Shown here: one piece after another, positions 13,330 to 48,467 of the stretch
How the letters are laid out: the number at the start of each line of letters is the position of its first letter
How positions within the stretch are numbered: position 1 is the first letter of the stretch
DNA from: an uncultured Candidatus Bathyarchaeia archaeon
GTDB lineage: Archaea > Thermoproteota > Bathyarchaeia > Bathyarchaeales > DTEX01
Direction of reading: 5' to 3'
Length of the DNA stretch: 55,085 bases
NCBI GenBank assembly: GCA_964512445.1
Contig: CAZEGS010000002.1
Coordinates: 1 to 55,085, forward strand
The notes under the pieces: generated by a model
What the model was told of the DNA's origin: nothing
Databases searched by the model: none
The model's input: only the letters and a program-made list of their open reading frames with translations
Position numbers and translations under genes: made by a program

Positions 13330-14340
13330 TTGGGGATGCGGATCGTCTTGCTTAGGCTTATACAAATAGGCGTAGGCGGATTTGGAAGAGGCTGGACAGA
13401 TATAGTTGAGTCGTCAAAGTTCTGGAAGCCTGTGGCATACGTCGATATAGATGAGAAAGCTTTGAAGGAAGCAGCGGAAGCGCATAAGATGCCTAAGGAG
13501 AGATGTTTCAATGATTTAGAAAGCGCATTAGCGGAGGTTGAGGCCGACGCCGCCTTAATCGTAGTCCCTCCAAATGTGCATATGGAAATAGCATTGCAAT
13601 CATTAAAGGCTGGTCTTCATGTATTGATTGAAAAGCCTCTGGCTGATGCTTTGGAGAACGCTAAGAGAATAGTTCTTGAAGCTGAGAAACGAGGTCTAAA
13701 ATTGATGGTCAGCCAGAATTATCGTTTTAGAAGGGGAGCGCGGACGGTTCGAAGACTTATTGAAAGAATGAAGGTTGGAAAGCCGAGCTATGCTATAGTT
13801 AACTTTCATAAGGCTCCTAAATTCAGAGGGTTCCGTCTAGAGATGGAATATCCCCTTCTCATAGACATGGCAATTCACCATTTCGATCTGATGAGATACA
13901 TATTTGCTTCGGATCCGCAGAGCATATACTGCGAAACGTGGAGGCCGGAGTGGAGCTGGTTTAAAGGCGATCCTTGCGTCACGGTTACGGTAAAGATGAG
14001 AAGCCAGATTCGCATCACGTATGTTGGAAGCTGGGTCTCCTTAGGCTGGGAGACGACATGGGATGGAGATTGGAGAATAGAATGTTCAGAAGGCGGGATA
14101 CACTGGAACGAAACCGTCAAGGTGAAGCCGAAAGATTCTGCTGAGGAAGTGACTGAAAAGCTTGTTTCGATGCCCTATGAAGATCGAGCCTACTCTCTAT
14201 ATGAATTCGCGGAGGCCATCAGAAAGAATAGGGAGCCGGAGACCAGCGGAAAAGACAATTTGAAGAGCCTAGTTATGGTATCTGCATCTCTAGATTCGGT
14301 GAAAAAAGGCAAACCCGTGCCTATCAGCAGATATCTTTAA
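13330..14340 (+). CDS. Gfo/Idh/MocA-family NAD(P)-dependent oxidoreductase
   Basis: N-terminal Rossmann IGVGGFGRGW and the EKP motif (LIEKPLA). The likely true start is the ATG at 13336. Confidence 0.85.
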   Translation: MGMRIVLLRLIQIGVGGFGRGWTDIVESSKFWKPVAYVDIDEKALKEAAEAHKMPKERCFNDLESALAEVEADAALIVVPPNVHMEIALQSLKAGLHVLIEKPLADALENAKRIVLEAEKRGLKLMVSQNYRFRRGARTVRRLIERMKVGKPSYAIVNFHKAPKFRGFRLEMEYPLLIDMAIHHFDLMRYIFASDPQSIYCETWRPEWSWFKGDPCVTVTVKMRSQIRITYVGSWVSLGWETTWDGDWRIECSEGGIHWNETVKVKPKDSAEEVTEKLVSMPYEDRAYSLYEFAEAIRKNREPETSGKDNLKSLVMVSASLDSVKKGKPVPISRYL

Positions 14341-14447
14341 GATCTTATATCAAAAAGGCTCGGTCCTTTCAGTTGCTGCTAAAAAAACATTAATTTAAAT
14401 GCGAAGACTAATTCATATTGGATTTCGGTTCTTAAGGGTCGAAAATA

Positions 14448-15803
14448 GTGAAGTTTCCACTTCCCAAAAAATCAATAAAGAAGCTTAAGAGAAGGGTCCC
14501 CTGGATAGGGCATGTTATAAATGAGGAAACAGCTGGAGACCTAAATCTATCCAGTCCAGAATTAGAGATTCATTTTAGGGAGGGAAGCCTATGCCTCGTC
14601 TGTAGGGGAAGCCGAAGACTATGCGGAAAACCCAGATGTCCAGCTATTCTGAAGCTATACTCCTTCATAAGAACGAGAAACGCGGTAAGATCGAATCAGA
14701 TGGTTGGGTCTTCTCCTCCCGGAATCTTTGTTGGACGAATCGGGTACCCCTACGTTTACGCCGGGCCTTTAGTCCCTCCAGTTGTAGGCGATACTTCCCT
14801 CTATGACTTTCCGGAGAAGTGGCTGGGCAGAACAGCAGACGATATAATAGAGTTTAGAACAAGCCTCGTTCGAGGCAAATTTAGAGTAAACGTGAAGAAG
14901 CCTTGGAAGAATGAACGTTTTATAAGCAAAACTCTGGAGGTCGCTCTGTCTAGAAATTCTGTTGATACTGAGGTGACTTTTCGTAAAAAGCCGTCTGGAA
15001 AGCTCCTGCTAGACGGTACGCTTCAACCTATGGGTCCCTCAGCCGTATTGGAGAAGATGGATGTTGGAAGCCCTAAGACTGACTTTAAGATCGAGGAAGC
15101 CTATAGTGACGGCGACTTAAAAGCGGAAGAAGCCATTACGAATCTATACCTGGATGGGGTTCCCGTCTCGAGGCTTCAAAGAGCATTCAGTGTAGGGGCA
15201 TTTGGACTTAAAGATCAGAGACGGATGGTCCCTACAAGATGGAGCATAACGGCTGTCGATTCGATTGTATCGAAAAATTTGATTGAGAAGGGGATCAAAG
15301 GTAAAAAGCCGATTAATGAGTACAGAGTATACGAATTCAGCTATCTTGGAAATCGATTCATAATCCTCATGACTCCCTCATCATGGAAATATGAGTGGAT
15401 TGAAGCTTGGTATCCTGGAACCGTCTGGAATCCGGGCGGTCAGAAAATCGCTATGGGAGGCGACTGGGAAGGATACAAAGGAAGAACAACTTACGCTTCA
15501 ATAGGCGGATGCTATTATGCGGTAAGATTAGCAGTTGCAGAGTTTCTGGCAAAAGAAGGGAGACAAGCCGGCGTCATAGCGATGAGGGAGATCTATCCGA
15601 GCTTCATAACGCCGTTAGGAGTATGGATAAATAGGGAAAGCGTGAGGGAGGCGCTGCGGAGGAGACCGGTAAAGTTCGACAGCCTCGATGACGCTATAAA
15701 CCATATAGGCAAAAGATTCTCGATAGGAATAGACGAGTGGATAAGAACAAGCGTCCTACTAAAAGAGTCTCTATATCAGGAGAAGCTCACCAAGTATATC
15801 TGA
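14448..15803 (+). CDS. Nre-family (archaeal DNA-repair-associated) protein with a C-terminal PIP-like box
   Basis: 451 aa, GTG start. N-terminal Cys cluster CLVCRGSRRLCGKPRCP. VPTRWSITAVD motif. C-terminus QEKLTKYI fits the PCNA-interacting pattern Qxx[LIM]xx[FY][FYLI]. Confidence 0.6.
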   Translation: MKFPLPKKSIKKLKRRVPWIGHVINEETAGDLNLSSPELEIHFREGSLCLVCRGSRRLCGKPRCPAILKLYSFIRTRNAVRSNQMVGSSPPGIFVGRIGYPYVYAGPLVPPVVGDTSLYDFPEKWLGRTADDIIEFRTSLVRGKFRVNVKKPWKNERFISKTLEVALSRNSVDTEVTFRKKPSGKLLLDGTLQPMGPSAVLEKMDVGSPKTDFKIEEAYSDGDLKAEEAITNLYLDGVPVSRLQRAFSVGAFGLKDQRRMVPTRWSITAVDSIVSKNLIEKGIKGKKPINEYRVYEFSYLGNRFIILMTPSSWKYEWIEAWYPGTVWNPGGQKIAMGGDWEGYKGRTTYASIGGCYYAVRLAVAEFLAKEGRQAGVIAMREIYPSFITPLGVWINRESVREALRRRPVKFDSLDDAINHIGKRFSIGIDEWIRTSVLLKESLYQEKLTKYI

Positions 15804-15838
15804 AAAATAAAAATTAGAGGCTATTAGAAAGGAAACCT

Positions 15839-17077
15839 TCATATTCTGCTTATTCCCTTCAAGAGCTCCTTCAGAAGCACGTCGGAAGCGTTTCTTCCCT
15901 CCCTCTCTCTAATTTCCTCGGCATACTTCTTGAATTCCTCAAGAGTAACAGGTCTCTTTCCCTTCTTCTGGGATAGGTATGCAGACTGCACAATCGCTGT
16001 GGTTTCAGCTCCAATCTTTTCGTCGCATAGCGGCTTAACACCATTCAGTATGCAATTACACATGTTCCTTATCTCTCCCTCAAAGCTCTGAGTCCATGTG
16101 ACCTCGCCTAAGTTGAACTCTCTCTTCCCCCCAGCTGCATCAGTTATCTCAAGAAGAGTCTCCTTCTCCCTTTGAACAGGTTTAATTATGCCATTCGTTC
16201 CGATCACGCAGGTATCTAGAGAGTCTCTGTAGGACCATGATCCCTCGACATGAGCAGTAGACCATGATCCATCATCCCCCTCAAACCGGATTATTACATG
16301 CGCATCATCCTCAACCTCGAATCGTTTAAACCTGCCCTGTAGAATTCGCGTCTTCATCCTAATGCAGATGCCGTATGGCTCAGCGGCCTTAACAACGGTA
16401 GGTCTCCTATCAAATCCGCTTAGGAACCAGGAGCACGTTATTGCATGAACACCATTATCGAGGAGAGATCCGCCGCCAGCGATTTCCGGATCCCAGAACC
16501 ATGATGCCCATTCAGGGCCTCCATGAGCCGTAGCTAGAAAAGTTAATTGAAGCTCCCCTATAACTCCACTCTCAATAAACTTCCTCATATTATACCATAC
16601 TGGACTGTAAAGCCAGTTCTCATTATGCTGATAGAGCTTTCCACTGTCCTCAACAGCCTCCACAACCTCGAGGCATTCGAGATATGTTCTAGCCATAGGC
16701 TTCTCAGCCATTACATTCACATCATGCTTTAAGGCTTTAATAGCAAGTACGCTGTGAAACTTAGTTGGAGTACAAATATCAACCAGATCAAGATCCTCCT
16801 TAGAAAGCATCTCATCAACATCATTGTAGATTCTTAGAGATTCCGCATCCTCCTTTAGTCTCTCATAAAGATCCTCATCACCATCCTCCTCAGCCCTTCT
16901 AGCCCTATCAAGGTAAACCTTCCTGGTAATCCTCTGCGCTTCTCTTAATGCGCTCTCCGAAACGTCGCAAAGAGAGACAAGCTCAGCTTCCCTTATGTTT
17001 GGATACGCTGGGAGATGAGCTCCACGAAAAATGCCGCCAGCGCCTATAACTCCTACTTTCACCCTCTTCATCTTCAT
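15839..17077 (-). CDS. Gfo/Idh/MocA-family oxidoreductase
   Basis: 412 aa. VGVIGAGGIFRGAH Rossmann motif and MAEKPMA. Confidence 0.85.
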   Translation of the reverse strand: MKMKRVKVGVIGAGGIFRGAHLPAYPNIREAELVSLCDVSESALREAQRITRKVYLDRARRAEEDGDEDLYERLKEDAESLRIYNDVDEMLSKEDLDLVDICTPTKFHSVLAIKALKHDVNVMAEKPMARTYLECLEVVEAVEDSGKLYQHNENWLYSPVWYNMRKFIESGVIGELQLTFLATAHGGPEWASWFWDPEIAGGGSLLDNGVHAITCSWFLSGFDRRPTVVKAAEPYGICIRMKTRILQGRFKRFEVEDDAHVIIRFEGDDGSWSTAHVEGSWSYRDSLDTCVIGTNGIIKPVQREKETLLEITDAAGGKREFNLGEVTWTQSFEGEIRNMCNCILNGVKPLCDEKIGAETTAIVQSAYLSQKKGKRPVTLEEFKKYAEEIREREGRNASDVLLKELLKGISRI

Positions 17078-17336: not shown

Positions 17337-18005
17337 ATGGGCCCGGTAACCGTTAAGGCTCTAGATGGAGTCAATCTGAAAGTCAGACGTGGCGAGTATC
17401 TTTCCATCATGGGTCCCTCAGGCTCTGGGAAGACAACGCTCTTCAACATGGTTGGAGGAATAGATAGACCTACAAGAGGAAGGGTCTTTATAGATGGAGT
17501 GGATATAGCGAAGCTGGACGCTTACGAGCTCGCCTGGCTTAGATGCAGAAAGATCGGCTATATATTTCAGACATTCAACCTGATACCCGTCCTAACCGCC
17601 CTTGAAAACGTCACGTTGCCGATGATATTCGCAGGCGTGGAGCGTGAAGAACGTCTAAGACGAGGCCGCGAAATATTAGAATCCGTCGGTCTCGGCGACA
17701 GGCTTGATCACAAACCTGCAGAGCTGAGCGGCGGCCAGCAGCAGAGAGTAGCTATTGCAAGGGCCCTAGCTAATAATCCAGTCATCATTCTTGCAGATGA
17801 GCCTACTGGAAACCTGGATCTACATACAGGACTGGAAATAATCACGCTGCTTCGGGAGATGAACAAAGAGAAAGGCGTAACGATAATCGCTGCAACGCAC
17901 GACTTAAAGATGATTGACGTCAGCGACAGAATAGTCTATCTGCGAGATGGACTTATCGACCGATACGAGACGAGAGCTGAAGTCTACATTAGAGCAGAAA
18001 GATAA
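17337..18005 (+). CDS. ABC transporter ATP-binding protein (MacB/LolD-like). The coding sequence clearly extends upstream of the first ATG, so the start is unresolved.
   Basis: Walker [11 protein letters not shown]-loop, signature [15 protein letters not shown], Walker [13 protein letters not shown]-loop ATHD. In-frame upstream codons 17298..17336 encode YVVETEDLAKYYQ, the conserved beta-1/A-loop region. No ATG, GTG or TTG lies in frame back to the stop at 17211. Confidence 0.8.
17411..17612 (+). repeat. 202-bp tract 100% identical to the reverse complement of 34119..34320
   Basis: Base-by-base comparison of the two ABC ATPase genes. Identity is perfect across 202 bp and falls to roughly 70% on both sides. 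Confidence 0.95.
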
Positions 18006-20155: not shown

Positions 20156-23100
20156 ATGAGCTTTAAACGTCTTAGCTCCTTGATTCTTTTGGTTATGCTT
20201 TTTGTGATTCTCAATCAAGGAAACACCATAAAGATTCTTAGTGCATCTGAAAAATCATCCGTCTTGAGAGCGGATGGGGATCTCTCTCCTATACTTACTG
20301 CTCCTCGCGATTTAGCATCTTACGCCAAGCAAGTTGCCGAAAGAATAGATATGAACCGGATAAAGGAGCATATTCGTTATCTCTCCAATCTTGGAACAAG
20401 ATGTCCCGGAACAGACGGTTATTATAAAGCTGCTGAGTATATTAAAGAAAAGTTTGAGGAGTATGGGCTGCTTAACGTTTCTTATCAGAATTTTGAAATG
20501 GCCATGCCCGTATCTCATGGAGCTTGGTTGGAGGTTGTATCGCCTAAAATCGATGAGAAGATAGTTCTTGAGCCGTTCCTTCCGAACGTCGTTGCACCCT
20601 CAACTGGAGATTATGAAGGTAGACTAATCTATGCCGGCTTTGGAACCTACAAGGAGTTTGAGAAGCTCGGCATGAACGTCTCAGGCGCCATAGCTATGCT
20701 TGAGTATGCTTCTGGACGGAACTGGGTGAATGCCTTCGCCCTAGGATGCCAAGCTGTTCTCTTCATAGAGTCTAACTCCACAACGATCTATGGTAACATG
20801 ATGAAGACGGTCAGCGCGGCTATAAATCTGCCCAGATACTACATAAGGTATGAAGATGCCTCTAAGCTCCGTAAGCTCATCTCTGAAGAGCCTGCTTTTG
20901 TCCGCATCAAATCTAAAGTAACCTGGGAAGAAATCCCCGCGATGAATGTTCTAGGCTTCATAAAGGGTACGACATATCCTGATCAAATACTTCTTCTAAT
21001 CGCACACTTCGATAGCTTCTCAGTCGTTCCGGGGATTGCTCCGGGCGCAAATGAGGCTCAAGGCATAGCTGCACTTCTCGAATTAGCCCGATTCTACTCC
21101 GAGAATCCTCCAGCCAGAACAGTCATGTTTCTAGCAGTTTCAGGACACTGGCAATCCTATTATGGCATGAGAGAATTTATGGAGGAGTACTTCTTTGGAA
21201 ACTCAACTAATATTGGTTCAAAGATTAGAATGTCCTTTTACTTGGACTTTTACACTCTCGATAGCGACAGCATAGTGGTGCAGGCTACAGGACCCGTCCA
21301 TTCATTCACGGGGCCACGGTATGCGAAATATACCGATTACGTAGCTAAGCTTATCTTTACTTTAGGTTCGCCATCATTCAAATCCTATGTTGATCCATCC
21401 GCGCCAATTATGAAGTATGAGTACGGCGTTGACTCCATCTCATCCATACTGCAGGAGGTCTTCGGTGATGGAAAGAATATACGCTTCAAGGTGGGAGACC
21501 AGATATATGGCGCGCAGGCTCCCTGGGTTACAGCGGGAGGAACAACTTGGGGCGCAGGCTCATCCGTCTTCATCTGGGACGGAGAGCTTCTAATGGGGAC
21601 AGGTGGGATATGTTTAGCTATAACCTCGGGCGCTACAAGCCGTATTATGGAGCGTACCCCTCTAGACACTTTTGATAAGGTTAACTTCAAAAATCTGAAT
21701 CATGTTCTAAAATATGCATTTAACGTGATCTTCTTCTTCGCAAATGCTGATGAGAACATATATGAGAATATTCCAAGATTCCGCATAAGCCGTTATGATC
21801 CTAACAGCGGAGTTGCCTTCATCAAGCTTCATGTCCAAGTTCTTGAGTATGACAAGACTAAAACTGGATGGTACAAGCCTGTTCCAAAAGCATTAGTGCT
21901 GCTTTATCAGGGAGCTTCCGGCTATGGAACATACGTTCTAGGCCAGGTTCCAAATACACAGATGGTTGAGATCGCTGACGAAAACGGCGTTGCGACGTTT
22001 ATAGGCCTAAAAAGCGCCTTCATCGTTCTAGGCGCAATGTTCAGCTATAACATTGAAGGATACATGGTAGATGAAGAGACTGGGAATCTCATCTACGCTC
22101 CGAACCAAGGAACCTTTGGACTTGCCCAGTTTGTCAGCGCCTACACCCCCAATAAGGCTGAAGAACACGTCTCTATAAGCGTCCTTAAAGCTGGCACAAT
22201 CGCCCTCTTCGAAGTCTACACCCCACTGGAGCTTCCAAGCGGAGGCTGGAGAACGCCTGTTGGGCAGACAACGGTCTCGCCTTTAGAGGCTCAGTCACTA
22301 AGCGTACCATTCTTCTATGGCGCCAAGAGCGATGTGACATTAGCCGTCTCAGCCATCTACGTAGAGCCTGATACGCCAGTAATAATAGAGTATAACTTTC
22401 CAGGAAAGCTTGTTGGAATTCTAAGAAACGCCTCTGAAACTTCCCCGTTGGGTGAAGGCTTCAAAGTGGGAGTAGGAGAAAAACTTGTTATACCCTACAC
22501 CTCATATAGAGTGGCCCTAGACACATGGATCTTGGATGAGAGTAGACTCAGCAATCTTGGGAGATATCACGTCTACAGCGCTGGTGGAAGAGCAGAATAC
22601 TATCATTCAGAGGCTGCTAAGCACCTAAAGGCGGCTGAGAAGGCCCTACGCAATTACAGATACGATGAGCTCTTCGGAGAGGCTTGGAGAGCCTGGTCCT
22701 ACGAGGCTATGGCGTATGATCTTGTTAAGAAAACAACGATCGACGCTGTCGTCACCGCTTGTTTCTTCATAGCGTTAGCAGTACCCTTCGCTTTCTTATT
22801 TGAAAGACTAGCCTTCAGCTTCGAGAATGGATGGAAGAGGCTTGGAGCAATATTAGGAATATCAACAGTGCTACTAGTTTCCCTCTCAATTATACATCCA
22901 GGCTTCATACTCGCTTCAAACATAATAATGGTTGTGTTAGGAACAGCGATAATCTTTCTACTCCTCCCAGTTATTATCGTAATCTTCTCAGACGTCAGAG
23001 ATCAGCTTAAAAAGATGAGAGAGAGCATGTCTGGAATTCATGCTGCAGAGATAAGCATGTCAAGCGCTATAATGATGGCTTTCTCAGTTGCAGTCTCACA

Positions 23101-24862
23101 TCAGAGGAAGCGTAGATTTAGAACAGTATTATCCCAGATCACGGTTATTCTGATAACATTCGCCCTTGTAAGCATGGTCTCCATCTCAACATTCTCTGCA
23201 GTTATACGTGTACCCCAACCCCTCACATACAAACCATTATATGAGGGTCTCTTAGTCCGGGATAAGGAATGGCAAGAACTATCTCAAGACCAGTTTAACA
23301 CGATCTCCGCAGCATATAGCGATATCGCAACTGTGGTTCCAAGAGTCTGGTGGTTCCCGCCCTACATGCTTGGACAATCCCAAAGCATACTCTTCTGGGT
23401 CTCTCAACAGCAAGTTATGTGGAACATAGATGTAGCGAAGACCCTCAGCAAGACGCTTGGCCTAAAAGGCCGTAACGGCACGGTTCCAATATATGCTGTC
23501 TGGGGGCTCTCACCAGATGAGCCTAAACTAACTGGATTAAAGGTTGTTGAAGGAAAATGGATCGAGCCTGGAGATACTTGGGTTTGTCTCTTAACGGTTA
23601 AGGATGCGAAATCAATAGGAGTCTCGGTAGGAGACACCGTGGAATATTACGGCTCAATCTTCACAGTTAAAGGATTAGTAGATGCTAATGAGACTTACGT
23701 CACAGATATTGACGGCGAGCCGATCACTCCCCTATCCTATGAAGACGTCTATTACGAGCTTCAGACTAAACGTCAAGTTGAAAATTACGCTCCCCTCCAT
23801 CTTAAGCCATGGTCCTACGGGAGATTCGTCATAGTTCCCTATCAGATAGCCCTTGATATGGGCGGCAGCCTCATAAGCATAGCTTTAAAGTTTAAGCCTG
23901 GAATGACCGAAATAGAAAAAGTCATAGCGGTAGAACTTGCCGACAAGCTCGGAATGGACGTCTATATGTCTTCAGGAGGATCAACAATCGTTTACAGAAA
24001 AGGAGCAGGATACTCCCAAAGAGGCTTCGAAGCGATAGTATTTCCACTGATCATTGGAGCCCTAACGATAGCCACAACATTATATGGAGGTATCATGGAA
24101 AGGATCGGTGAGATGTCGATCTTCAGCTCTCTCGGAATGACACCCATGCAGATAGCAGGCGTATTCCTAGCTGAATGTCTCGTTACATCCCTAATAGGAG
24201 CCGTCTTAGGCTATCTACTCGGCATCCTAAACATTTACATTGGCAGCGCATTTGGAGCTGTAGGGGAAGCTGTTTCACCCAACTATTCCTCAAGCTATGT
24301 ATTGACCGCTCTAAGCATCGCTATGATTGCGACGCTAGGTGTAAGCGCTTATCCACTCTATAAGGCAGCGAAGCTCGTTACGCCCTCTCTAGAACGGAAA
24401 TGGAGAATACCCAAACCTAAAGGTGACAGATGGGAGGTCCCCCTGCCCTTCCTATGCAAGTCGGAAGCCGAAGTTTTAGGCATCTTCGAATACTTGAAGG
24501 AGTATCTGAATCAGTTTAGAACCGAAAGGGTAGGCACATTCATGATTGGAGAAATCCAATATTCGGAGAGTCTAAAGGAGGGCTCTCCAGTTATGGATCT
24601 ATCATTTAACGTAACGTTGGCTCCCTACGAGCAGGGAGTCACCGAAAAAGCTATAATCAGATCTAGCTGGTCTAGTAGGGTAAAGGCATATTCATTCCAG
24701 CTTCTTATGAATAGGTTATCTGGATCCGGAAGTGTATGGCGGATCTCTAACCCCAGATTTATTGATGCCGTAAGGAAACAGCTTCTAACTTGGCGGTTAT
24801 TGTCCGCTGAGAAGCGGGATATGTACATTAAAAAAGCCAAGCCGATTAAAGAAGCGGAGTAG
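20156..24862 (+). CDS. Giant membrane protein: signal anchor, PA/M28 peptidase-like ectodomain (catalytic motifs degenerate), 3 TM, MacB/FtsX-type permease module (TM1, extracytoplasmic domain, FtsX TM2-4), ~115-aa cytoplasmic tail
   Basis: 1,568 aa. M28-like motifs: RYLSNLGTRCPGTDGYYKAAEYI, NVLGFIKG, IAHFDSFS (~21002), PGANEAQGIAALLE (~21041). The expected EE motif reads FLAVSGHWQSYYG (~21127). FtsX module: HQRKRRFRTVLSQITVILITFALV (~23098); PCD-like VWGLSPDEPKLTGLKVVEGKW...VGDTVEYYGSIFTVKGLVD; MERIGEMSIFSSLGMTPMQIAGVFLAECLVTSLIGAVLGYLLG (~24095); YPLYKAAKLVTPSLERKW. Confidence 0.75.
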   Translation: MSFKRLSSLILLVMLFVILNQGNTIKILSASEKSSVLRADGDLSPILTAPRDLASYAKQVAERIDMNRIKEHIRYLSNLGTRCPGTDGYYKAAEYIKEKFEEYGLLNVSYQNFEMAMPVSHGAWLEVVSPKIDEKIVLEPFLPNVVAPSTGDYEGRLIYAGFGTYKEFEKLGMNVSGAIAMLEYASGRNWVNAFALGCQAVLFIESNSTTIYGNMMKTVSAAINLPRYYIRYEDASKLRKLISEEPAFVRIKSKVTWEEIPAMNVLGFIKGTTYPDQILLLIAHFDSFSVVPGIAPGANEAQGIAALLELARFYSENPPARTVMFLAVSGHWQSYYGMREFMEEYFFGNSTNIGSKIRMSFYLDFYTLDSDSIVVQATGPVHSFTGPRYAKYTDYVAKLIFTLGSPSFKSYVDPSAPIMKYEYGVDSISSILQEVFGDGKNIRFKVGDQIYGAQAPWVTAGGTTWGAGSSVFIWDGELLMGTGGICLAITSGATSRIMERTPLDTFDKVNFKNLNHVLKYAFNVIFFFANADENIYENIPRFRISRYDPNSGVAFIKLHVQVLEYDKTKTGWYKPVPKALVLLYQGASGYGTYVLGQVPNTQMVEIADENGVATFIGLKSAFIVLGAMFSYNIEGYMVDEETGNLIYAPNQGTFGLAQFVSAYTPNKAEEHVSISVLKAGTIALFEVYTPLELPSGGWRTPVGQTTVSPLEAQSLSVPFFYGAKSDVTLAVSAIYVEPDTPVIIEYNFPGKLVGILRNASETSPLGEGFKVGVGEKLVIPYTSYRVALDTWILDESRLSNLGRYHVYSAGGRAEYYHSEAAKHLKAAEKALRNYRYDELFGEAWRAWSYEAMAYDLVKKTTIDAVVTACFFIALAVPFAFLFERLAFSFENGWKRLGAILGISTVLLVSLSIIHPGFILASNIIMVVLGTAIIFLLLPVIIVIFSDVRDQLKKMRESMSGIHAAEISMSSAIMMAFSVAVSHQRKRRFRTVLSQITVILITFALVSMVSISTFSAVIRVPQPLTYKPLYEGLLVRDKEWQELSQDQFNTISAAYSDIATVVPRVWWFPPYMLGQSQSILFWVSQQQVMWNIDVAKTLSKTLGLKGRNGTVPIYAVWGLSPDEPKLTGLKVVEGKWIEPGDTWVCLLTVKDAKSIGVSVGDTVEYYGSIFTVKGLVDANETYVTDIDGEPITPLSYEDVYYELQTKRQVENYAPLHLKPWSYGRFVIVPYQIALDMGGSLISIALKFKPGMTEIEKVIAVELADKLGMDVYMSSGGSTIVYRKGAGYSQRGFEAIVFPLIIGALTIATTLYGGIMERIGEMSIFSSLGMTPMQIAGVFLAECLVTSLIGAVLGYLLGILNIYIGSAFGAVGEAVSPNYSSSYVLTALSIAMIATLGVSAYPLYKAAKLVTPSLERKWRIPKPKGDRWEVPLPFLCKSEAEVLGIFEYLKEYLNQFRTERVGTFMIGEIQYSESLKEGSPVMDLSFNVTLAPYEQGVTEKAIIRSSWSSRVKAYSFQLLMNRLSGSGSVWRISNPRFIDAVRKQLLTWRLLSAEKRDMYIKKAKPIKEAE

Positions 24863-24869
24863 ATTATGA

Positions 24870-26813
24870 ATGACGGAAAGACGTAATCGAAGATTAGCTC
24901 TCGAAGAAGGATTAACGATAAACTCTATTCTCGCCATTATATATGCCGCTGTTGTGCTTCAGCCAGCCGCCATCTACCTAACAATGACGGCTGGCGTAAC
25001 TATAGGAGCAGGCTACGTAGCTGTTCTCCTATTTGTTGAGCTCGCCCGGTTGCTCGGCCGCCCCCTGAGACGAGCTGAAGTATTCATTATCTATGCCATG
25101 AGCGGTATGGCTGCAATGTCAAACTATTTCATGGCGATGCCCTGGAACGCCTATATAAGGACAAGCCCAATATCCCACAGTTTCTATATTGAAGGAAAAA
25201 CGGTGGCGGAGCTCGTTCCCGTATGGATGGCTCCTCCAGCGGGCTCCGAGGCAATAACAAAACGACTAATATTTCATCCAGACTGGATTCCGAACCTGCT
25301 TGTCTGGCCGATCACATCCTTCATAATAATCCCCATAATGGATATCATGCTTGGTTTCCTAGCCGCCCAGCTATACATCGAAGTTGAGAAGCTTCCATTC
25401 CCCATGCAGCAAGTCGACGCTGCTGTGGTTGAAACGCTCAGCGTAAGAGAACCTAGAAGAATGAGAGCATTCACAATCGCAGCTGCGCTTGGCATGGCCT
25501 ACGGATTCGTCCTCTACGGACTGCCAATCATAACTGAAACCTTTATGGGAATCAGATTGACAATTATCCCCTGGCTCTGGCTGGATCTCACCTCAGGTAT
25601 CGAACGGTATCTGCCCGGCTCCACCCTAGGCGTCGCAACGGACCTCACAACCTTCCTAATGGGATGGATCATCCCATTCAATGTAGTAGTCTCGATGCTA
25701 ATAGGATCCATAGCCCTAAATTTTGTGGGGAACCATCTCCTAGTAAGATTTAACATTCTAAAGAGAGGGATAGATTGGTTCCCAAACATGGGAATATCAG
25801 GCATAACCCTTAGATTCCAAATGAAGTTCTGGGCAAGCGTCTTTGTAGGTCTATCAATAGCTACGGCTCTGATTCCCCTGATAAGGAGAAGAGAATATAT
25901 AACCTCAACCTTCAGAAGCCTCTCAAAACTTTCTAAAGCCTCAAGAGAAGCTGGATATCTCCCCTTAAAGGTGATAATTATAGGCTACCTAGCAGCCTCA
26001 TTCGCTTCAATAGCGATCTTCTATATCCTCGTATCACCAGAGTTCCGAACAACCTATTGGTGGTTCCCACTTCTACTCGGGCCAGGATGGACCTTCATTG
26101 TAACTCTAGTAGCGGCAAGATCGATAGGATTAACCGGCTACAACCTCTTCGCCGCCACAGGATACGGCTACACGGCGTCCCCAGCATATGTTAAAGAGGG
26201 CATACTCCTCTCAATTCCATATCAGGGACTTGACGCTTGGGCTGCTCCTCTAGCTATAAGTCAGGGCGGCGCCAGCTGGTGTGCAGCCTTTAAGCTATGC
26301 CAGCTAACCGGAACAAAGCCGATAAGCTATATAAAAGCATGGTTCTTAACGATCTTCATATCCTTCATAACAAGTATGCTATACATGCAGATGTTCTGGG
26401 CGCTGGCTCCCATACCATCAGCCTCCTATCCCTTCCTCTCATTCCAGTGGCCCATAACCTTAATGTTCTGGAATCTATGGGTAACAAAATCTATAGTCAT
26501 GTTCCAGCCTATTGTGATCATAGCATCCTTCATAATTGGAGCCCTCATGGATATCATCCCAGCGGTCATGCATCTGCCCTTCTCTCTAATAGGCTTCGTC
26601 GTCGGAGCCTCGACGCCGATGCCGAACTCACTCTCCATGTTCATAGGCGCCTTAATTGGAAGATTCATGATTCGTAGAAGGCTGGGTGAAGATTGGTGGA
26701 GAAACTACAGATACGTTATGCTGGCAGGGGTCTTTCTAGGAGAAGCATTAATGGTTGGAATATCCGCTACCCTGATGTTGATGAGTAAAGCAGCCTGGAT
26801 ACTTCCATTTTAA
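24870..26813 (+). CDS. Polytopic membrane protein (about 14 or more TM), distantly OPT (oligopeptide transporter) superfamily-like
   Basis: 647 aa. Starts 7 nt after the preceding stop. The N-terminus LTINSILAIIYAAVVLQPAAIYLTMTAGVTIGAGY and the motif QLYIEVEKLPFPMQQVDAAV resemble the OPT LxFPSGTATA region. Paralogue of 26997..29015. Confidence 0.5.
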   Translation: MTERRNRRLALEEGLTINSILAIIYAAVVLQPAAIYLTMTAGVTIGAGYVAVLLFVELARLLGRPLRRAEVFIIYAMSGMAAMSNYFMAMPWNAYIRTSPISHSFYIEGKTVAELVPVWMAPPAGSEAITKRLIFHPDWIPNLLVWPITSFIIIPIMDIMLGFLAAQLYIEVEKLPFPMQQVDAAVVETLSVREPRRMRAFTIAAALGMAYGFVLYGLPIITETFMGIRLTIIPWLWLDLTSGIERYLPGSTLGVATDLTTFLMGWIIPFNVVVSMLIGSIALNFVGNHLLVRFNILKRGIDWFPNMGISGITLRFQMKFWASVFVGLSIATALIPLIRRREYITSTFRSLSKLSKASREAGYLPLKVIIIGYLAASFASIAIFYILVSPEFRTTYWWFPLLLGPGWTFIVTLVAARSIGLTGYNLFAATGYGYTASPAYVKEGILLSIPYQGLDAWAAPLAISQGGASWCAAFKLCQLTGTKPISYIKAWFLTIFISFITSMLYMQMFWALAPIPSASYPFLSFQWPITLMFWNLWVTKSIVMFQPIVIIASFIIGALMDIIPAVMHLPFSLIGFVVGASTPMPNSLSMFIGALIGRFMIRRRLGEDWWRNYRYVMLAGVFLGEALMVGISATLMLMSKAAWILPF

Positions 26814-29887: not shown

Positions 29888-31090
29888 ATGATAAAGATTG
29901 CCAGCTGGATTTCTCTCCTCCTAATCTTATCGCTGCTTCCATCACCAATAGCTTACAGCGGCTCTACTAAAATTCACATCTACGCATACGAGTCTCCCGC
30001 TACAGAATCGCTTTTAGAATATATCTCCAAGACGGGTTGCGAAGTGATATTTTATAGCCTCAACGAGTCTTCTGCAGTATCATCTGTAAACAAGATTGTT
30101 GTGATACTTGACCTGATCGGCGTTGAAGCGGCTCCGGGAATAGATGCTAACGTAACGTCCTGTAGACGATGCGAAATTCCACAATCCTTCTATGCAGGTG
30201 TGCCCATGCGGCTGGTCTCGCCCCTCATAGGTTTTTTCCGGAATGGAAGGCTAACAGCAATCACCATCGGAATCTCTAAACCTGAGATTCTAGATGAAGC
30301 GTTCAAGACTGCAGGTGATGACTACATGAAGGTGTTCACTCCCCAGAAGGAATACTCCATAACCGATGAGAATGCCAGAGCCCTACTTGAAGAATTGTTC
30401 CTTGAAGAATACGAGTCAAAAATAGAAACTCTAAATATCCCCTTAACAGTCACTCTGCTTGCAGTTGCAGACTCTATAAATCCATGTACCTTCACGGTCT
30501 TTACAGCCCTACTATTCATCACGCTATACTCGCTTGGCAAATCAAAGACCGTTTTGACAGGCCTCTCATTCATCACAGCTATCTTCTTATCATACTATGC
30601 CCTCGGCTTAGGCCTCATCCATCTGCTAGTAGCAATCCCATACATGGATAAGATTGTAGCGGCGGCTGGATTTGCAATCGGTCTCCTCAGCATCACTCGA
30701 GGTTTAAAGCCGAGTTTCAAATCTCCCATTCCACGACGGATAAGAAGATTCTTGGAGCGGCATATAGAGAAGTCGTATGCCAGCCCAATATTATCCTTCG
30801 CTTTAGGAATAATCGTCAGCTTCACGTTACTGCCATGCAGCTCAGGTCCCTACATAGTAAGTTTAGGTCTCCTATCACTTCTGAAGGATCATGTACAGGC
30901 ACGTCTCCTATTAGCCCTATACAATCTGCTATTTGTAACGCCGCTTATGCTGGTTCTCCTAGCGGTTCTAGCCTCACGTTTAGTAGCGAGAAAAATAAAG
31001 ATGCTGAAGAGCAGAAGGCTCGGAGTTATGGAATTGATTAACGGATCAATCCTCACGGCTATATGCATATATATAATCTTTTCGTCTTGA
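29888..31090 (+). CDS. CcdA/DsbD-like thiol:disulfide transmembrane protein fused to an N-terminal extracytoplasmic CxxC domain
   Basis: 400 aa. Signal peptide. Ectodomain with SCRRCE (CxxC). The membrane domain has DSINPCTFTVFTALLF and LLPCSSGPYIV, the two conserved membrane Cys motifs of the DsbD/CcdA type. Confidence 0.55.
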   Translation: MIKIASWISLLLILSLLPSPIAYSGSTKIHIYAYESPATESLLEYISKTGCEVIFYSLNESSAVSSVNKIVVILDLIGVEAAPGIDANVTSCRRCEIPQSFYAGVPMRLVSPLIGFFRNGRLTAITIGISKPEILDEAFKTAGDDYMKVFTPQKEYSITDENARALLEELFLEEYESKIETLNIPLTVTLLAVADSINPCTFTVFTALLFITLYSLGKSKTVLTGLSFITAIFLSYYALGLGLIHLLVAIPYMDKIVAAAGFAIGLLSITRGLKPSFKSPIPRRIRRFLERHIEKSYASPILSFALGIIVSFTLLPCSSGPYIVSLGLLSLLKDHVQARLLLALYNLLFVTPLMLVLLAVLASRLVARKIKMLKSRRLGVMELINGSILTAICIYIIFSS

Positions 31091-31154: not shown

Positions 31155-32192
31155 ATGAAGATTACGAGAGTTGAGACTTTCACTGTGGCAGTTCCATTTG
31201 TCCCTAAAATGGAAGTTTTAAATGACAACCTCGCCAAGGTGCCGAAGGTCATCATTAAGGTTCATACTGATGAAGGATTAATTGGTATAGGTGAGACTTA
31301 CAGAGGCATACCAGAAAGCATGGTGCGTGAAGAAGCATCAAAGCTTATAGGTAAAGATCCAATGGATATGAACCTGCAAGATCTAGAAGTCTCTCCGAGG
31401 CTGAAGCATGTCTTTGAGCAGGCATTTTATGACTTGGCTGGGAAGGCCCTCGGCGTTCCAGTCTACAAGCTACTGGGGGGAGCCTACAGAACCGAAGTAC
31501 CCGTCTCCGCATGGTCTCCCCATCATGGACCTAAGAATCCGGAGAAGACCGCTGCGATCGCGGAATTAGCCGTAGAGTTGGGATACAGCGTGATTAAGCT
31601 GAAAGCGAGACCTTGGGATATTGTAGAGACGGTTAAAGCTATAGAGAAGGTTGCAGGGCCAGATATGGGTATAGTCTGCGATCCAAACACCATGTTTAAT
31701 CAGCCTTCAATCGCGGTTAAGCTCGCCAGAAAACTTGAAGGGCACAATATAGTCTGCTTTGAAGATCCTGTTCCAAAGGAGAATCTCTACTGGTACGTCC
31801 TTCTAAGACATAAGATTGATATTCCTATCGCCCTCCATATAGGAGGAGCCGATATCATTAGAGCCATAAAGGCTGAGGCATGCGACATAATAAATACGAG
31901 TGGAACAATGTGGGAGTTTAAAAGGAACGCTGCCATCGCGGAGTTGGCGGGCATACCAGTATGGCATGGATCTGGAAACGATCTTGGAATATTAGAGGCA
32001 AGCTACCTGCATGCCTGCGCAGCAACGAAGAATGCTACTCTCACCAGCGATATATTCGGCGAGTTCTGCCGCGAGAACGATCTTCTAGTGGAGCCTATAG
32101 AGATAAAGAACGGATACGCTAAGGTGCCGGATAAGCCGGGGCTCGGCGTTGAATTAGATGAGAAGGCCATAGAAAAATACAGAATAAAATGA
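31155..32192 (+). CDS. Enolase-superfamily enzyme (mandelate racemase/muconate lactonizing enzyme family)
   Basis: 345 aa. MKITRVETFTVAVPF...IKVHTDEGLIGIGE capping domain, KxK motif VIKLKA, and barrel ligand motifs CDPN and FEDP. Confidence 0.85.
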   Translation: MKITRVETFTVAVPFVPKMEVLNDNLAKVPKVIIKVHTDEGLIGIGETYRGIPESMVREEASKLIGKDPMDMNLQDLEVSPRLKHVFEQAFYDLAGKALGVPVYKLLGGAYRTEVPVSAWSPHHGPKNPEKTAAIAELAVELGYSVIKLKARPWDIVETVKAIEKVAGPDMGIVCDPNTMFNQPSIAVKLARKLEGHNIVCFEDPVPKENLYWYVLLRHKIDIPIALHIGGADIIRAIKAEACDIINTSGTMWEFKRNAAIAELAGIPVWHGSGNDLGILEASYLHACAATKNATLTSDIFGEFCRENDLLVEPIEIKNGYAKVPDKPGLGVELDEKAIEKYRIK

Positions 32193-32388: not shown

Positions 32389-33048
32389 TTAAACCTCGTA
32401 TCTTAGGGCCTCTGCTGGATGTAGCCTAGACGCGTAGAAGGCGGGATAAGCAGCTGCAGCGACGCTTAATAACGCGGAGATTCCTATCCCCTCAGATATA
32501 TATCTTAAATATTGAAACATGACGATTCCTATCTTATCTGCGGGGAAGACCCCTCCAATACCATATTGGACGCCATATATGCCGATCGCTGCGATCCAGC
32601 CTGCAAAGGATCCTATGACTCCGCCAAGCAATCCCAGCAATAGCGCCTCAATAAGGAATATCTCTAGAACGCTTGTATCCGTCGCTCCTAGACATTTAAT
32701 TGTGCCTATCTCCTTGTATCTCTCGGTGACGGACATGAGCATGGAGTTTATGATTCCCACGCCGCAGACGAGAAGGGCTATTATAGCCATCATCAGCTGG
32801 TATGCTTGAGGTGGCTGTTGACCGACATTTGGCAATATAACGTTCATTGAACGAATAGTTACATAGAATGCTATTCCTAAAAGGATCGAGACTGCAGTTA
32901 TAAGAGCTCTTGTAAATCGTTTCTTTATGCTTTCAAGACAGTAACGGAAGGCTTCTGTGAAGGGGAAGGTTATCGTCCCTATCTCCATCGAAGAAGCTTC
33001 AGAAGTCTGCTCTACTTTACTCTCCGAGCTCATAGCGTTATTCCTCAC
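32389..33048 (-). CDS. Minimal FtsX-family ABC permease (4 TM, about 20-aa external loop, no large extracytoplasmic domain)
   Basis: 219 aa. KRFTRALITAVSILLGIAFYV (TM1), SVTERYKEIGTIKCLGATDTSVLEIFLIEALLLGLLGGVIGSFAGW, and YPAFYASRLHPAEALRYEV. Confidence 0.85.
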   Translation of the reverse strand: MRNNAMSSESKVEQTSEASSMEIGTITFPFTEAFRYCLESIKKRFTRALITAVSILLGIAFYVTIRSMNVILPNVGQQPPQAYQLMMAIIALLVCGVGIINSMLMSVTERYKEIGTIKCLGATDTSVLEIFLIEALLLGLLGGVIGSFAGWIAAIGIYGVQYGIGGVFPADKIGIVMFQYLRYISEGIGISALLSVAAAAYPAFYASRLHPAEALRYEV

Positions 33049-33169
33049 GCATAAATTTAATGATGAACTATCACATTTAAAGATTTTCCAATTTTTCTAT
33101 GAGGAATCTTCAACCGTCCCTTTATGGACCCTACAAAAATAGGATTGAAAGTGATGCTGGAGGAGACCG

Positions 33170-33325
33170 TTATTTCTTCTTCTCTTCCTGTTCGATTTCC
33201 TTAAGTGCCTTCTGAAGCTCCTCAATCAAGGCCTTAATCTCTTCCGCTCCGCCGATTGTAACGGTTGTTCCATAAGCATCTGAGATGCACCATTCCCCTG
33301 TGACGGCGCGCCAAAGCGTCCACAC
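33170..33325 (-). CDS. Unannotated 51-codon ORF (GTG start) between the Cys4 protein gene and the FtsX permease gene
   Basis: Hand translation: (M)WTLWRAVTGEWCISDAYGTTVTIGGAEEIKALIEELQKALKEIEQEEKKK*. A purine-rich GGGAGAGAGAAATCG lies immediately upstream. The ORF fills an otherwise 300-nt gap inside a same-strand operon. It is below the ORF-track size cut-off. Confidence 0.35.
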   Translation of the reverse strand: MWTLWRAVTGEWCISDAYGTTVTIGGAEEIKALIEELQKALKEIEQEEKKK

Positions 33326-33350
33326 CGATTTCTCTCTCCCTCTAGCCGTC

Positions 33351-33695
33351 TTAAGACTCTTTCACTACCTCTTCTGATCTTCCCAGCCTCTCCCAATCCA
33401 CTCTCTTAGCGATCTTTTTAAGATGATCCTTAAGTAATTTCTCTGCCTTCTCTGCTCCTAAACGTCCAGAATTCCATGTGACGAAGGGCGGATAGAAGGA
33501 TGCCTCCTTGAATTTAGCCTTTCCATTTACTATATCAAATTTTATGTATCCTAGCTCTCTGAGGTAGCAGGAGTCATTTGGGCAGAGAATATCAATCTCT
33601 CTTAATTCATGCTTCAAATAAACTACCTTGTATTCTTCAGGGTCCTCTATTATTCTTCCACATGGACATTGAATACTCTCAATCTTTTCAGCCAT
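33351..33695 (-). CDS. Small Cys4 (zinc-ribbon-like) protein
   Basis: 114 aa. CPCGRII...(25 aa)...CPNDSC. Sits between the ABC ATPase and permease genes on the same strand. Confidence 0.55.
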   Translation of the reverse strand: MAEKIESIQCPCGRIIEDPEEYKVVYLKHELREIDILCPNDSCYLRELGYIKFDIVNGKAKFKEASFYPPFVTWNSGRLGAEKAEKLLKDHLKKIAKRVDWERLGRSEEVVKES

Positions 33696-33713
33696 ATTTC
33701 CACCACCATTAAA

Positions 33714-34460
33714 CTATTCGCTTTCAAACTCTTCAGCCGTTAACGTAAGTGCACGTCTCCTCTCTATATTCTCTATCATCCCATCTCGGAGGAAGACAAC
33801 CCTATCACTTATATCTATCATCTTTAGGTCGTGGGTGGCGCAGATAATCGTTGTTCCACGCTCAGCTTTTAGACGATACAAAAGCTGAACTATCGCGAAG
33901 CCAGTATTAAGATCCAAGTTTCCAGTAGGCTCATCTGCAAGGATAAGTGCAGGATCGTTAGCTAGTGCTCTGGCGATAGCTACTCTCTGCTGCTGGCCGC
34001 CGCTCAGCTCAGTTGGCCTATGATCAAGCCTTTCGCCTAAACCAACCATCCTCAGCAGCTCAGCCGCCCTCTTCCTCCTCTCCTCCTTGGGCACTCCCAA
34101 AAATATCATTGGCAAAGCGACGTTTTCAAGGGCGGTTAGGACGGGTATCAGGTTGAATGTCTGAAATATATAGCCGATCTTTCTGCATCTAAGCCAGGCG
34201 AGCTCGTAAGCGTCCAGCTTCGCTATATCCACTCCATCTATAAAGACCCTTCCTCTTGTAGGTCTATCTATTCCTCCAACCATGTTGAAGAGCGTTGTCT
34301 TCCCAGAGCCTGAGGGACCCATCACAGAAAGATATTCTCCATGAGGAACCTCCAGGTTTATCCCTCTCAGAGCGTGAACCTCTTCTCCCTTTAGATGATA
34401 AACCTTGTGAACATCGATAACCTTCACCGCTGGAACGGACTTCTCCATTGACAGATACAC
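33714..34460 (-). CDS. ABC transporter ATP-binding protein (MacB/LolD-like)
   Basis: 248 aa. Complete N-terminus ([12 protein letters not shown]), Walker [40 protein letters not shown]. Confidence 0.95.
34119..34320 (-). repeat. Partner of the 202-bp perfect inverted tract (see 17411..17612)
   Basis: The reverse complement is identical base for base to 17411..17612. Confidence 0.95.
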
Positions 34461-34542
34461 CTTCTTACGTCTGTTTTATTTGTAAGGAAACTTATATAGT
34501 TAATGCTAAGTAATCTCGTATTGCCAAGTTTGTAATGTCTAA

Positions 34543-34893
34543 TCAGCTTCCCCCTCTGAAAATATTCAGGATTAAATTCTCTATGCTGCTGGATAATGTT
34601 AAGAAGATTCTTGCTGCTTCCTTCCCCTTCAAAGTTAAGGTGTAAATCCTCTTCTTTCCATCCCAGTATCCCTTGATAAGTCCCTCCCTTTCAAGAGAGT
34701 AGAGTGTAGAGTATATGGATCCTGAACTTGGTAGAAATCCAAAGTCTTCGAAGATCTGTGTTATGACGTCGTATCCGCTCATCGGTTTTCTTTTAAGGTT
34801 AAACAGGATGAGTATATCTATGAAGTTTCTGATGGTTCTTCTTCTGAGTTCTTGAAGAAGATTTCCTCTCTTGAAATGTATAGTTTCCATCAT
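34543..34893 (-). CDS. PadR-family transcriptional regulator
   Basis: 116 aa. ILILFNLKRKPMSGYDVITQI...SSGSIYSTLYSLEREGLIKGYW...KRIYTLTLKGKE is the PadR winged-helix pattern. Confidence 0.9.
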   Translation of the reverse strand: MMETIHFKRGNLLQELRRRTIRNFIDILILFNLKRKPMSGYDVITQIFEDFGFLPSSGSIYSTLYSLEREGLIKGYWDGKKRIYTLTLKGKEAARIFLTLSSSIENLILNIFRGGS

Positions 34894-39321: not shown

Positions 39322-39399
39322 GGGGTCGTCGGCTAGCTTGGTCTAGGCTCCGAGCTTCGGGCGTTCGGGACCCCGGTTCAAATCCGGGCGACCCCACCA
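39322..39399 (+). tRNA. tRNA-Pro (anticodon CGG) with encoded CCA
   Basis: Acceptor GGGGTCG/CGACCCC. Anticodon stem CGAGC/GTTCG (one G-T pair) with loop TTCGGGC (anticodon CGG, G37). T arm CCCGG-TTCAAAT-CCGGG. Discriminator A, then CCA at 39397..39399. Confidence 0.85.
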
Positions 39400-47298: not shown

Positions 47299-47399
47299 CC
47301 CTAATCAACAGGTCCCTTTATGAACTATGCTATTTAGATGTTCCATCTTGAAAATGCATGATGTATGCTCGGATGATCCGGCGGGCTACCCTTAAATTT

Positions 47400-48392: not shown

Positions 48393-48467
48393 AGAGGCAC
48401 CCTACGCTAATAAGAAGAGGTTTATGCTGAATATTTCAATTTCGGATCTGACGCTGATCTTTTCCGA

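Follow-up and report, generated by a model that had tools for sequence, protein, structure and literature searches.

The stretch of DNA analysed here (the window: 55,085 nucleotides, contig CAZEGS010000002.1 of assembly GCA_964512445.1) comes from an uncultured Candidatus Bathyarchaeia archaeon and carries a gene for a 1568-residue protein, which we term the giant. A first-pass annotation had described this protein as a fusion of a catalytically degenerate M28/PA peptidase-like ectodomain to a MacB/FtsX-type permease. We show here that this protein is the signature subunit of a type VII (MacB/FtsX-type) ATP-binding cassette (ABC) system that is conserved and as yet uncharacterised.

Domain order, fold and vestigial site of the giant protein

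The giant is encoded by an uninterrupted open reading frame (ORF) with an ATG start, and its parts are listed below with the evidence for each in brackets (aa, amino acids; TM, transmembrane; AF2, AlphaFold2 model).

20156–24862, + strand: the giant; PA/M28-like ectodomain, three TM helices, MacB/FtsX permease module and cytoplasmic tail (ORF, Pfam, full-length homologues)
20174–20230, + strand: N-terminal hydrophobic segment, aa 7–25 (hydropathy, AxA-like sites in homologues)
20327–21790, + strand: PA and M28-like module without a canonical catalytic site, aa 58–545, with H284, D286, E300, G330, H331, D364 and R500 (Pfam, PDB profile search, AF2, Foldseek, alignment)
21791–22495, + strand: beta-rich external region, aa 546–780, of low model confidence and without a Pfam match (AF2)
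22496–22744, + strand: membrane-adjoining helical region, aa 781–863 (AF2 helices)
22745–22987, + strand: three extra TM helices, aa 864–944, with a conserved external-loop motif H914-P915-G-F (hydropathy, AF2, conservation)
22988–23137, + strand: cytoplasmic linker, aa 945–994, ending in a conserved RKRRFRT before FtsX TM1
23138–24349, + strand: MacB/FtsX module; TM1 aa 995–1013, external core aa 1014–1290, TM2–4 aa 1291–1398 (Pfam, hydropathy, PDB profile search, AF2, Foldseek)
24350–24862, + strand: family-specific cytoplasmic tail, aa 1399–1568, an alpha/beta domain with motifs VTPSLERKW and RKQLLxWR (alignment, AF2)

The ectodomain comprises aa 26–863 (about 840 residues), the extra helices are placed at aa 864–882, 896–914 and 926–944 by both hydropathy and the AF2 model, and the tail is 170 residues long. 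Pfam detects Peptidase_M28 at aa 264–379 (E 2.5e-11, 44 bits against a cutoff of 21, covering profile positions 1–108 of 193 only) and FtsX at aa 1294–1407 (E 6.7e-11), while NCBIfam returns weak LolC, LolE, ADOP and DevC matches in the FtsX part only. Hydropathy reveals eight hydrophobic segments, and since the identical plan is seen in four distant homologues, the anatomy that had been proposed is correct: ectodomain, three TM helices, MacB/FtsX module and tail follow one another as described, as Pfam, hydropathy, the PDB profile search and Foldseek all attest. Two of its finer assignments hold on other grounds than Pfam, where neither is called at the cutoff. The MacB_PCD match at aa 1088–1179 scores 22.7 bits, under the cutoff of 27, but this domain is recovered by Foldseek and in homologues; the PA domain, for which the window giant has no Pfam call, is assigned from the alignment to the aminopeptidase 2ek8. 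The N-terminal segment had been taken for a signal anchor. AxA-like sites follow its hydrophobic core in the window protein and in homologues, and read in this way it is probably a cleavable signal peptide.

The fusion of a peptidase-like ectodomain to a permease raises the possibility that separate peptidase and permease genes were joined by an assembly or annotation artefact. We found no point in favour of this, and its probability is practically negligible. Bathyarchaeia relatives from other assemblies are full-length, collinear and 62–96% identical, and distant full-length bacterial relatives (25–31% identity, 1447–1787 aa) include those of the complete genome of Maridesulfovibrio sp. FT414 and of a Planctomycetota metagenome-assembled genome (MAG); independent assemblies yield collinear full-length homologues at identities from 25 to 96%. 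GC content is even along the giant ORF. An exhaustive profile search with the ectodomain-plus-three-TM region as query returned 1370 representative clusters (50% identity) at E ≤ 1e-30, and the best 150 of these (E < 1e-187) match the entire profile. At least 1400 aa are present in 146 of the 151 retrieved representatives, so the suspicion of a chimeric ORF, which the first-pass annotation had itself raised, can be set aside. The few shorter matches are probably fragments: the shortest strong one (P0019, 945 aa) was considered as an unfused ectodomain and rejected, being truncated by a contig end. Fusion is the rule in this family, and the cassette that the giant marks (see below) occurs in many phyla of archaea and bacteria. 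In the source annotations these proteins are called 'M28 family peptidase' or 'FtsX-like permease family protein'.

When a profile of 19 family members was searched against the PDB, its N-terminal part matched the PA-M28 aminopeptidase 2ek8 (E 3.9e-27), YwaD, transferrin receptor 1 (TfR1), GCPII, nicalin and nicastrin. The AF2 model of aa 1–960 has a predicted local distance difference test (pLDDT) score of 85–95 over most of aa 60–330, with dips to 64–77 near aa 140–150 and 200–220, and its top Foldseek matches are 2ek8, NAALADase L, TfR1, GCPII and PaAP (E 1e-20 to 5e-23). The alignment of 2ek8 to aa 58–339 includes its PA domain, and those to TfR1, GCPII and NAALADL span 490–620 columns. 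Pfam, profile search and Foldseek agree on an M28 fold for the ectodomain. The helical region at aa 781–863 precedes the TM helices, and no homology to the TfR helical domain was demonstrated for it.

To describe the site, 170 members (151 proteins from the representative and profile searches, 18 homologues and the window giant) were aligned to the family hidden Markov model, and positions were read by correspondence to residues of Aeromonas aminopeptidase, with 2ek8 aligned by HMMER. Apart from that alignment, the assignment of motifs to positions in the giant follows the known pattern of the M28 family. The counts across the 170 members are as follows.

Aeromonas His97, H284 in the giant: His 54%, Tyr 34%
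Aeromonas Asp99, D286: Asp 100%
Aeromonas Asp117 (bridging), E300: Glu 55%, Asp 34%; active M28 enzymes have one more residue in this loop
Aeromonas Glu151 (general base), G330: Gly 162/170 (95%), Glu 0/170
Aeromonas Glu152, H331: His 76%
Aeromonas Asp179, D364: Asp 86%
Aeromonas His256, R500: His 0/170

The three motif readings of the first-pass annotation all stand: AHFDS keeps the HxD pair (H284 and D286), PGANEAQG places E300 at the position of the bridging Asp, and an SGH motif puts G330 and H331 where the EE pair is expected. The final (S)DH motif, which it had failed to find, is present as MERTPLDT (aa 498–505); this aligns with wyHTPNDT of 2ek8, and the His position is therefore occupied by Arg500. 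With the general base Glu and the last His each found in none of the members, and the canonical ligand and catalytic set complete in 0/170, the catalytic degeneracy that had been claimed extends to the whole survey, and none of the 170 proteins has the ectodomain of a canonical M28 peptidase.

Conservation in the ectodomain is nevertheless highest at the vestigial cleft: of the 57 positions in this domain with conservation of 85% or above, the PA/M28 core holds 42. The comparison with the transferrin receptor that had been drawn is too strong, the cleft of the giant family being the best-kept part of its ectodomain (D286 100%, E/D300 89%, G330 95%, H331 76%, D364 86%). Since the S-G-H and acidic positions are kept and the PA/M28 core is best conserved, a ligand site, perhaps a one-metal site, may survive in the cleft, and we infer that the M28-like module is a 'binding domain'. 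In most distant homologues (P0008, P0009, P0011, P0012, P0016, P0017, P0018) the M28-like domain also carries a charged-rich insertion of about 100–330 residues between the S-G-H motif and the D364 position; two of these proteins are named as bacterial, and the window giant has no such insertion. It may form a putative coiled-coil arm.

The AF2 model of aa 781–1568 (mean pLDDT 78) matched MacB (E 2.8e-10), LolCDE, the Spr0694-0695 transporter, HrtB, YbbP, YtrF and BceB in Foldseek, and the C-terminal part of the family profile matched MacB, LolC/E/F and YtrF. The module has the type VII plan of four TM helices with an external domain, here of 277 aa, between TM1 and TM2. This external core is of the MacB type: the family profile aligns to MacB residues 372–639, PF12704 is recorded in 6 homologues, and the isolated MacB periplasmic region 5c59 is matched by Foldseek (E 5.5e-4, TM-score 0.56). 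In the cytoplasmic loop between TM2 and TM3, E1315 is nearly invariant and R1316, G1327 and P1330 are invariant (consensus ERxxEIxxxSSxGLxP), and the small FtsX protein described below carries a stretch that resembles it (TERYKEIGTIKCLGA). By the FtsX-family motif, we take this loop to be a putative coupling helix. The tail folds from about aa 1420 to 1568 as a confident alpha/beta domain in the AF2 model; searches of Pfam and of PDB sequences returned nothing for it with E values as high as 10 allowed, and its weak Foldseek matches to START/SRPBCC-type structures (3lyd, 6bym, 2ns9, 2d4r; E 0.01–0.03) are no more than a hint of such a fold.

A cassette with OPT-like permeases, an ATPase and a small FtsX

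The first-pass annotation considered the giant gene singly. Its context of OPT permeases, small FtsX and ATPase changes the functional reading. All parts of the cassette are present in the window, together with a second ATPase and a paralogue of the giant.

24870–26813, + strand: polytopic OPT-superfamily partner 'O', 647 aa, starting 8 nt after the giant stop codon
26997–29015, + strand: second OPT-superfamily partner 'D', 672 aa, with DUF6785 and DUF6784, 184 nt after O
17337–18005, + strand: ABC ATPase 1, MacB/LolD/FtsE-type, 222 aa, 2.1 kb upstream of the giant
32389–33048, − strand: small FtsX, 219 aa, four TM helices, TM1 and TM2 being only about 19 residues apart; corresponds to the first gene in bacterial cassettes
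33714–34460, − strand: ABC ATPase 2, 248 aa, 76% identical to ATPase 1
41839–45204, − strand: paralogue of the giant, 1121 aa, with a CarboxypepD_reg ectodomain

The 'O' gene adjoins the giant in all 8 loci retrieved through the giant as well as in the window. Maridesulfovibrio and a 1.1-Mb metagenomic contig share one gene order: a small FtsX of 225–243 aa comes first, then the ABC ATPase, the giant, a DUF6785/DUF6784 protein (about 658 aa) and lastly a protein of about 652 aa. A third bacterial locus also begins with small FtsX, ATPase and giant, after which it encodes a protein of 664 aa. In the loci from Bathyarchaeia and Planctomycetota, a gene for a product of about 650 aa comes after the giant, and in some of them a DUF6785 gene lies upstream. 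BLAST of the window proteins against bacterial and archaeal cassettes aligned O over its full length at 26–30% identity, the small FtsX at 31–33% and both ATPases at 62–72%, and D was also matched.

The association was then scanned in reverse, with a five-sequence O-family alignment as query and one genome per species. This gave at least 558 confirmed stretches, from Bathyarchaeia, other Thermoproteota and one Asgard archaeon among the archaea, and from Omnitrophota, Gemmatimonadota, Latescibacterota, Armatimonadota, Planctomycetota, a Vermiphilus (Dependentiae) MAG and many Desulfobacterota among the bacteria; the cultured strains Desulfogranum marinum DSM 2058 and Halodesulfovibrio aestuarii DSM 17919 are included. 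The giant lies upstream of O on the same strand in 47 of the 59 best O loci with enough upstream DNA, and where DNA extends upstream of the giant, small FtsX and ATPase are both found there in 20 of 37 loci. In Desulfobacterota the order is fixed as small FtsX, ATPase, giant, D and O. O loci without a giant are mostly of the Gemmatimonadota type or from Fimbriimonadaceae, with O amid unrelated genes. Since O occurs alone in some lineages, it can transport without the ABC part, which looks like an addition to it.

O and D are paralogues by hhalign (probability 97.3%, E 2.4e-11, 533 columns). The window D protein matches DUF6785 (E 9.6e-24), DUF6784 (E 4.9e-14) and OPT (E 6.8e-4), and two of eight members of the O family match OPT at 7e-17; by sequence, both are members of the OPT superfamily.

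The first-pass annotation had noted that no ATPase gene adjoins the giant. This is literally true: an aldehyde:ferredoxin oxidoreductase gene on the other strand lies between ATPase 1 and the giant. However, the window holds two ATPases of the LolD/FtsE/MacB type, one of them 2.1 kb upstream, and their homologues directly precede the giant in bacterial cassettes. Both score best against LolD, FtsE, MacB and YbbA models. ATPase 1 is closer to the bacterial cassette ATPases (66–72% identity) than ATPase 2 is (63–65%), and so is the likelier cognate ATPase. Either ATPase could serve any of the FtsX proteins encoded in the window, which are the two long paralogues and the small one. ATPase 2 and the small FtsX belong to a minus-strand string at 32389–34893, together with a PadR-family regulator (34543–34893) and a 114-aa Cys-rich ORF (33351–33695). 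The 1121-aa paralogue shares its eight-segment membrane plan and its cytoplasmic tail with the giant, to which it is 25% identical over 640 residues (E 9e-33). Its ectodomain, of about 300 aa with a CarboxypepD_reg domain, is of another kind, and no OPT-like gene adjoins it. With one membrane plan and tail carrying two kinds of ectodomain, the chassis is thus modular.

Downstream of O in Desulfobacterota and Armatimonadota, a protein of about 300 aa (14 loci) and a PqqD-type peptide-binding protein (9 loci) recur. They are seen at L001 19329–20619 and also at L046, L059, L066, L068, L070, L073 and L081; the ~300-aa protein has no family match. Among the gene clusters that recur with the cassette we found no hydrolase or other conserved external enzyme, nor are biosynthetic genes or a precursor peptide conserved with it across phyla. 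An Rfam scan of the window and three bacterial loci gave no known RNA or riboswitch upstream of the cassette. In the Vermiphilus sp. MAG the giant and an OPT-like gene lie at L043 847–7200; the Dependentiae lineage has small genomes and relies on imported or host nutrients.

Possible roles of the system

The reading we favour, tentatively and at a little under an even chance, is that of a type VII mechanotransducer with a cis-fused effector and OPT-type permeases, which would carry out ATP-driven capture of a ligand and its delivery to a secondary transporter. The FtsX module of the giant would pair with the small FtsX as a heterodimer in which only the giant contributes an external core domain, as if the BceB plan were split over two proteins, and two copies of the ATPase would bind this heterodimer. 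ATP binding and hydrolysis would then shift the external core domain, and the movement would be passed on to the fused PA/M28-like module, whose vestigial cleft would bind a ligand, most plausibly the free end of a peptide, without cutting it. The ligand would be handed to the OPT-type permeases O and D, or its entry into them gated, and so would pass across the membrane. There are precedents for parts of this scheme: LolC and LolE form heterodimers and BceB complexes lack one external domain (PMC5985334), and the movement of EnvC by FtsEX through ATP turnover (PMC7668044) serves as a model for the giant module.

The role is probably peptide capture or uptake, a step that we grade as weak. Peptide-like cargo and uptake are favoured because characterised members of the OPT family transport peptides or iron-siderophores (PMC3061005), because the cleft derives from an aminopeptidase, because a PqqD-type protein is sometimes linked and because the cassette persists in a Dependentiae genome. 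In its fullest form the proposal is of a hybrid machine shared by Archaea and Bacteria, in which an ABC mechanotransducer with a pseudo-aminopeptidase receptor captures peptide-like substrates and loads or gates OPT permeases. In this specific form we consider it doubtful; if true, it would be a new class of receptor-dependent secondary transport, and no type VII ABC system before it would have had a demonstrated role in uptake.

Several observations weigh against the capture and delivery reading. The function, with its substrate, ligand binding and transport, is inferred, and the proposed pairing of the giant with the small FtsX comes from gene linkage only. That linkage is itself uneven, small FtsX and ATPase being non-adjacent to the giant in archaeal and many bacterial loci and upstream of it in only the 20 of 37 given above. 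The AF2 model of aa 1–960 falls below a pLDDT of 80 past aa 330 and is poor past about aa 380. Neighbour signals are mixed, several loci carrying sugar-acid or glycan genes (MR_MLE dehydratase-like, GFO/IDH, GH130, BNR), and the weak START/SRPBCC-like matches of the tail suit a lipid-like or hydrophobic ligand better than a peptide. Finally, we know of no type VII ABC system that feeds an importer; known ones push substrates outward or regulate partners.

Alternatively, the system could be a regulatory adaptor like FtsEX–EnvC, in which the inactive domain carries no cargo but follows the ATPase cycle to turn a partner on and off, this partner being either the OPT-like proteins or an external enzyme whose gene lies elsewhere. 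FtsEX controls amidases in this way, by mechanotransmission via the EnvC LytM domain (PMC7668044), BceAB works with a membrane partner, BceS (PDB 8g4c), and the charged insertions of 100–330 aa in the M28-like domain of bacterial homologues could be docking arms. However, no hydrolase or conserved external enzyme is linked to the cassette, though a target encoded elsewhere could still be served; the vestigial cleft, as the most conserved surface, suits ligand binding at least as well as partner binding; and the system is present in archaea lacking peptidoglycan. We regard this role as unlikely. Distinctly unlikely is an outward-directed scheme of extraction or export as in MacB, LolCDE and YbbAP–TesA, in which the ABC part would pull a hydrophobic or lipid-linked molecule out of the membrane or expel a periplasmic product, with O and D delivering the molecule from the cytoplasm and the M28-like domain receiving it. 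In its favour, all characterised type VII systems act outward or at the outer leaflet (PMC5985334, PMC12646458). The START/SRPBCC-like matches of the tail would fit, as would the usual service of PqqD-like proteins in peptide maturation and the glycosyltransferase genes found upstream in Desulfovibrionales. Yet the tail matches are weak and without sequence support, and neither biosynthetic genes nor a precursor peptide accompany the cassette across phyla. Characterised OPT-family members act as importers, which runs counter to export, as does the occurrence of O alone in some lineages. The substrates of the characterised members, peptides and iron-siderophores (PMC3061005), speak against it too.

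A further alternative is that the giant is still an enzyme: H/Y284, E/D300, H331 and D364 could hold one metal and support non-canonical catalysis, making the giant a membrane-tethered peptidase that feeds the OPT permeases. The conserved alternative residue set with its S-G-H motif and the concentration of the strongest ectodomain constraint in the PA/M28 core speak for this. Yet the general base is replaced by Gly in 95% of members and is Glu in none, the last His ligand is missing in 170/170, H284 gives way to Tyr in a third of members, and relative to active enzymes the ligand loop lacks one residue. We therefore think an enzyme very unlikely.

By analogy, FtsEX–EnvC appears to be the nearest functional counterpart of the giant system. 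The LytM domain of EnvC is an inactive M23-type peptidase fold, and in both cases a MacB/FtsX-type permease and its ATPase would move an extracytoplasmic domain of metallopeptidase fold that is not a peptidase. The giant differs in having a PA/M28 rather than a LytM (M23) fold, in being fused in cis via extra TM helices where EnvC is docked by a coiled coil, and in belonging to a cassette that has OPT-like partners, has no linked amidase or hydrolase and is also archaeal. With MacB, LolCDE, BceAB and YbbAP–TesA it shares the four-TM FtsX plan, the external core between TM1 and TM2 and a separate LolD/FtsE-like ATPase; a probable heterodimeric or asymmetric permease recalls LolC/LolE, one external domain per complex recalls BceB, and an enzyme-fold partner recalls YbbAP–TesA. 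In contrast to these systems, the giant adds an N-terminal ectodomain of about 840 aa, three TM helices and a 170-aa tail, its partner FtsX is a separate gene without an external domain, and its cassette has no genes for an adaptor or outer-membrane duct. TfR, GCPII/NAALADase, nicastrin and nicalin share with it a PA domain inserted in the M28 fold and membrane tethering and are among its best structural matches (Foldseek E about 1e-21), and TfR, nicastrin and nicalin have likewise lost catalysis. The giant, however, is prokaryotic and tethered on its C-terminal side to an ABC permease, whereas TfR is a type II protein with an N-terminal anchor; its vestigial site is conserved through the family where that of TfR is eroded, and a TfR-type helical dimerisation domain was not demonstrated in it. 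O and D resemble the OPT family (OPT/DUF6785/DUF6784) in keeping the E-K-L-P-F-P motif region, but as divergent prokaryotic branches without a studied member.

The first-pass annotation did not recognise the architecture as described, and our literature search bears this out: it returned no paper on the giant architecture or on the partner families DUF6785, DUF6784, PF20581 and PF20580, and no report of OPT transporters linked to an ABC system. A review of MacB-family arrangements (PMC5985334) does not list it. As far as we found, the cis fusion, the three extra TM helices, the family tail, the separate small FtsX and the OPT linkage are all undescribed. Type VII ABC systems are known from a few bacterial cases (MacB, LolCDE, FtsEX, BceAB, HrtBA, YbbAP), and how they transfer motion to partners is an active question. 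In the giant the effector domain is in the same chain, so a single polypeptide would suffice for work on the coupling, and some carriers are in culture (Halodesulfovibrio aestuarii DSM 17919, Desulfogranum marinum DSM 2058 and Maridesulfovibrio sp. FT414). Lineages of sediment and soil often have the cassette (Bathyarchaeia, Desulfobacterota, Latescibacterota, Armatimonadota, Planctomycetota), and peptide capture, if true, would bear on how these organisms feed on detrital protein. The giant family is also a clear case of a pseudo-enzyme, to which automatic annotation gives the names of a peptidase or a permease.

Other genes of the window

Catabolic genes of sugar-acid type lie at 13330–17077, 31155–32192 and 46264–49706, comprising four GFO/IDH/MocA oxidoreductases, an MR_MLE enzyme and a PdxA-family dehydrogenase, and an MFS transporter is encoded at 7995–9185. 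The MR_MLE neighbour was considered as a dipeptide epimerase, which would favour peptide use; this was rejected, its best models being muconate cycloisomerase and acid-sugar dehydratase rather than L-Ala-D/L-Glu epimerase. ORFs of 225, 400 and 114 aa in the window cluster have no family match. The 400-aa product (29888–31090, + strand) is a membrane protein with Pro-Cys motifs, NPCTF and LPCSSGP, which are reminiscent of thiol-disulfide transporters of the DsbD/CcdA type. ARAGORN places a tRNA-Pro(CGG) at 39322–39399 (+ strand), and Rfam at its gathering threshold gave a tRNA-Cys at 3228 only. The 471-aa product of 3764–5179 on the minus strand contains a pseudomurein-binding repeat (PMBR, E 2.4e-10).

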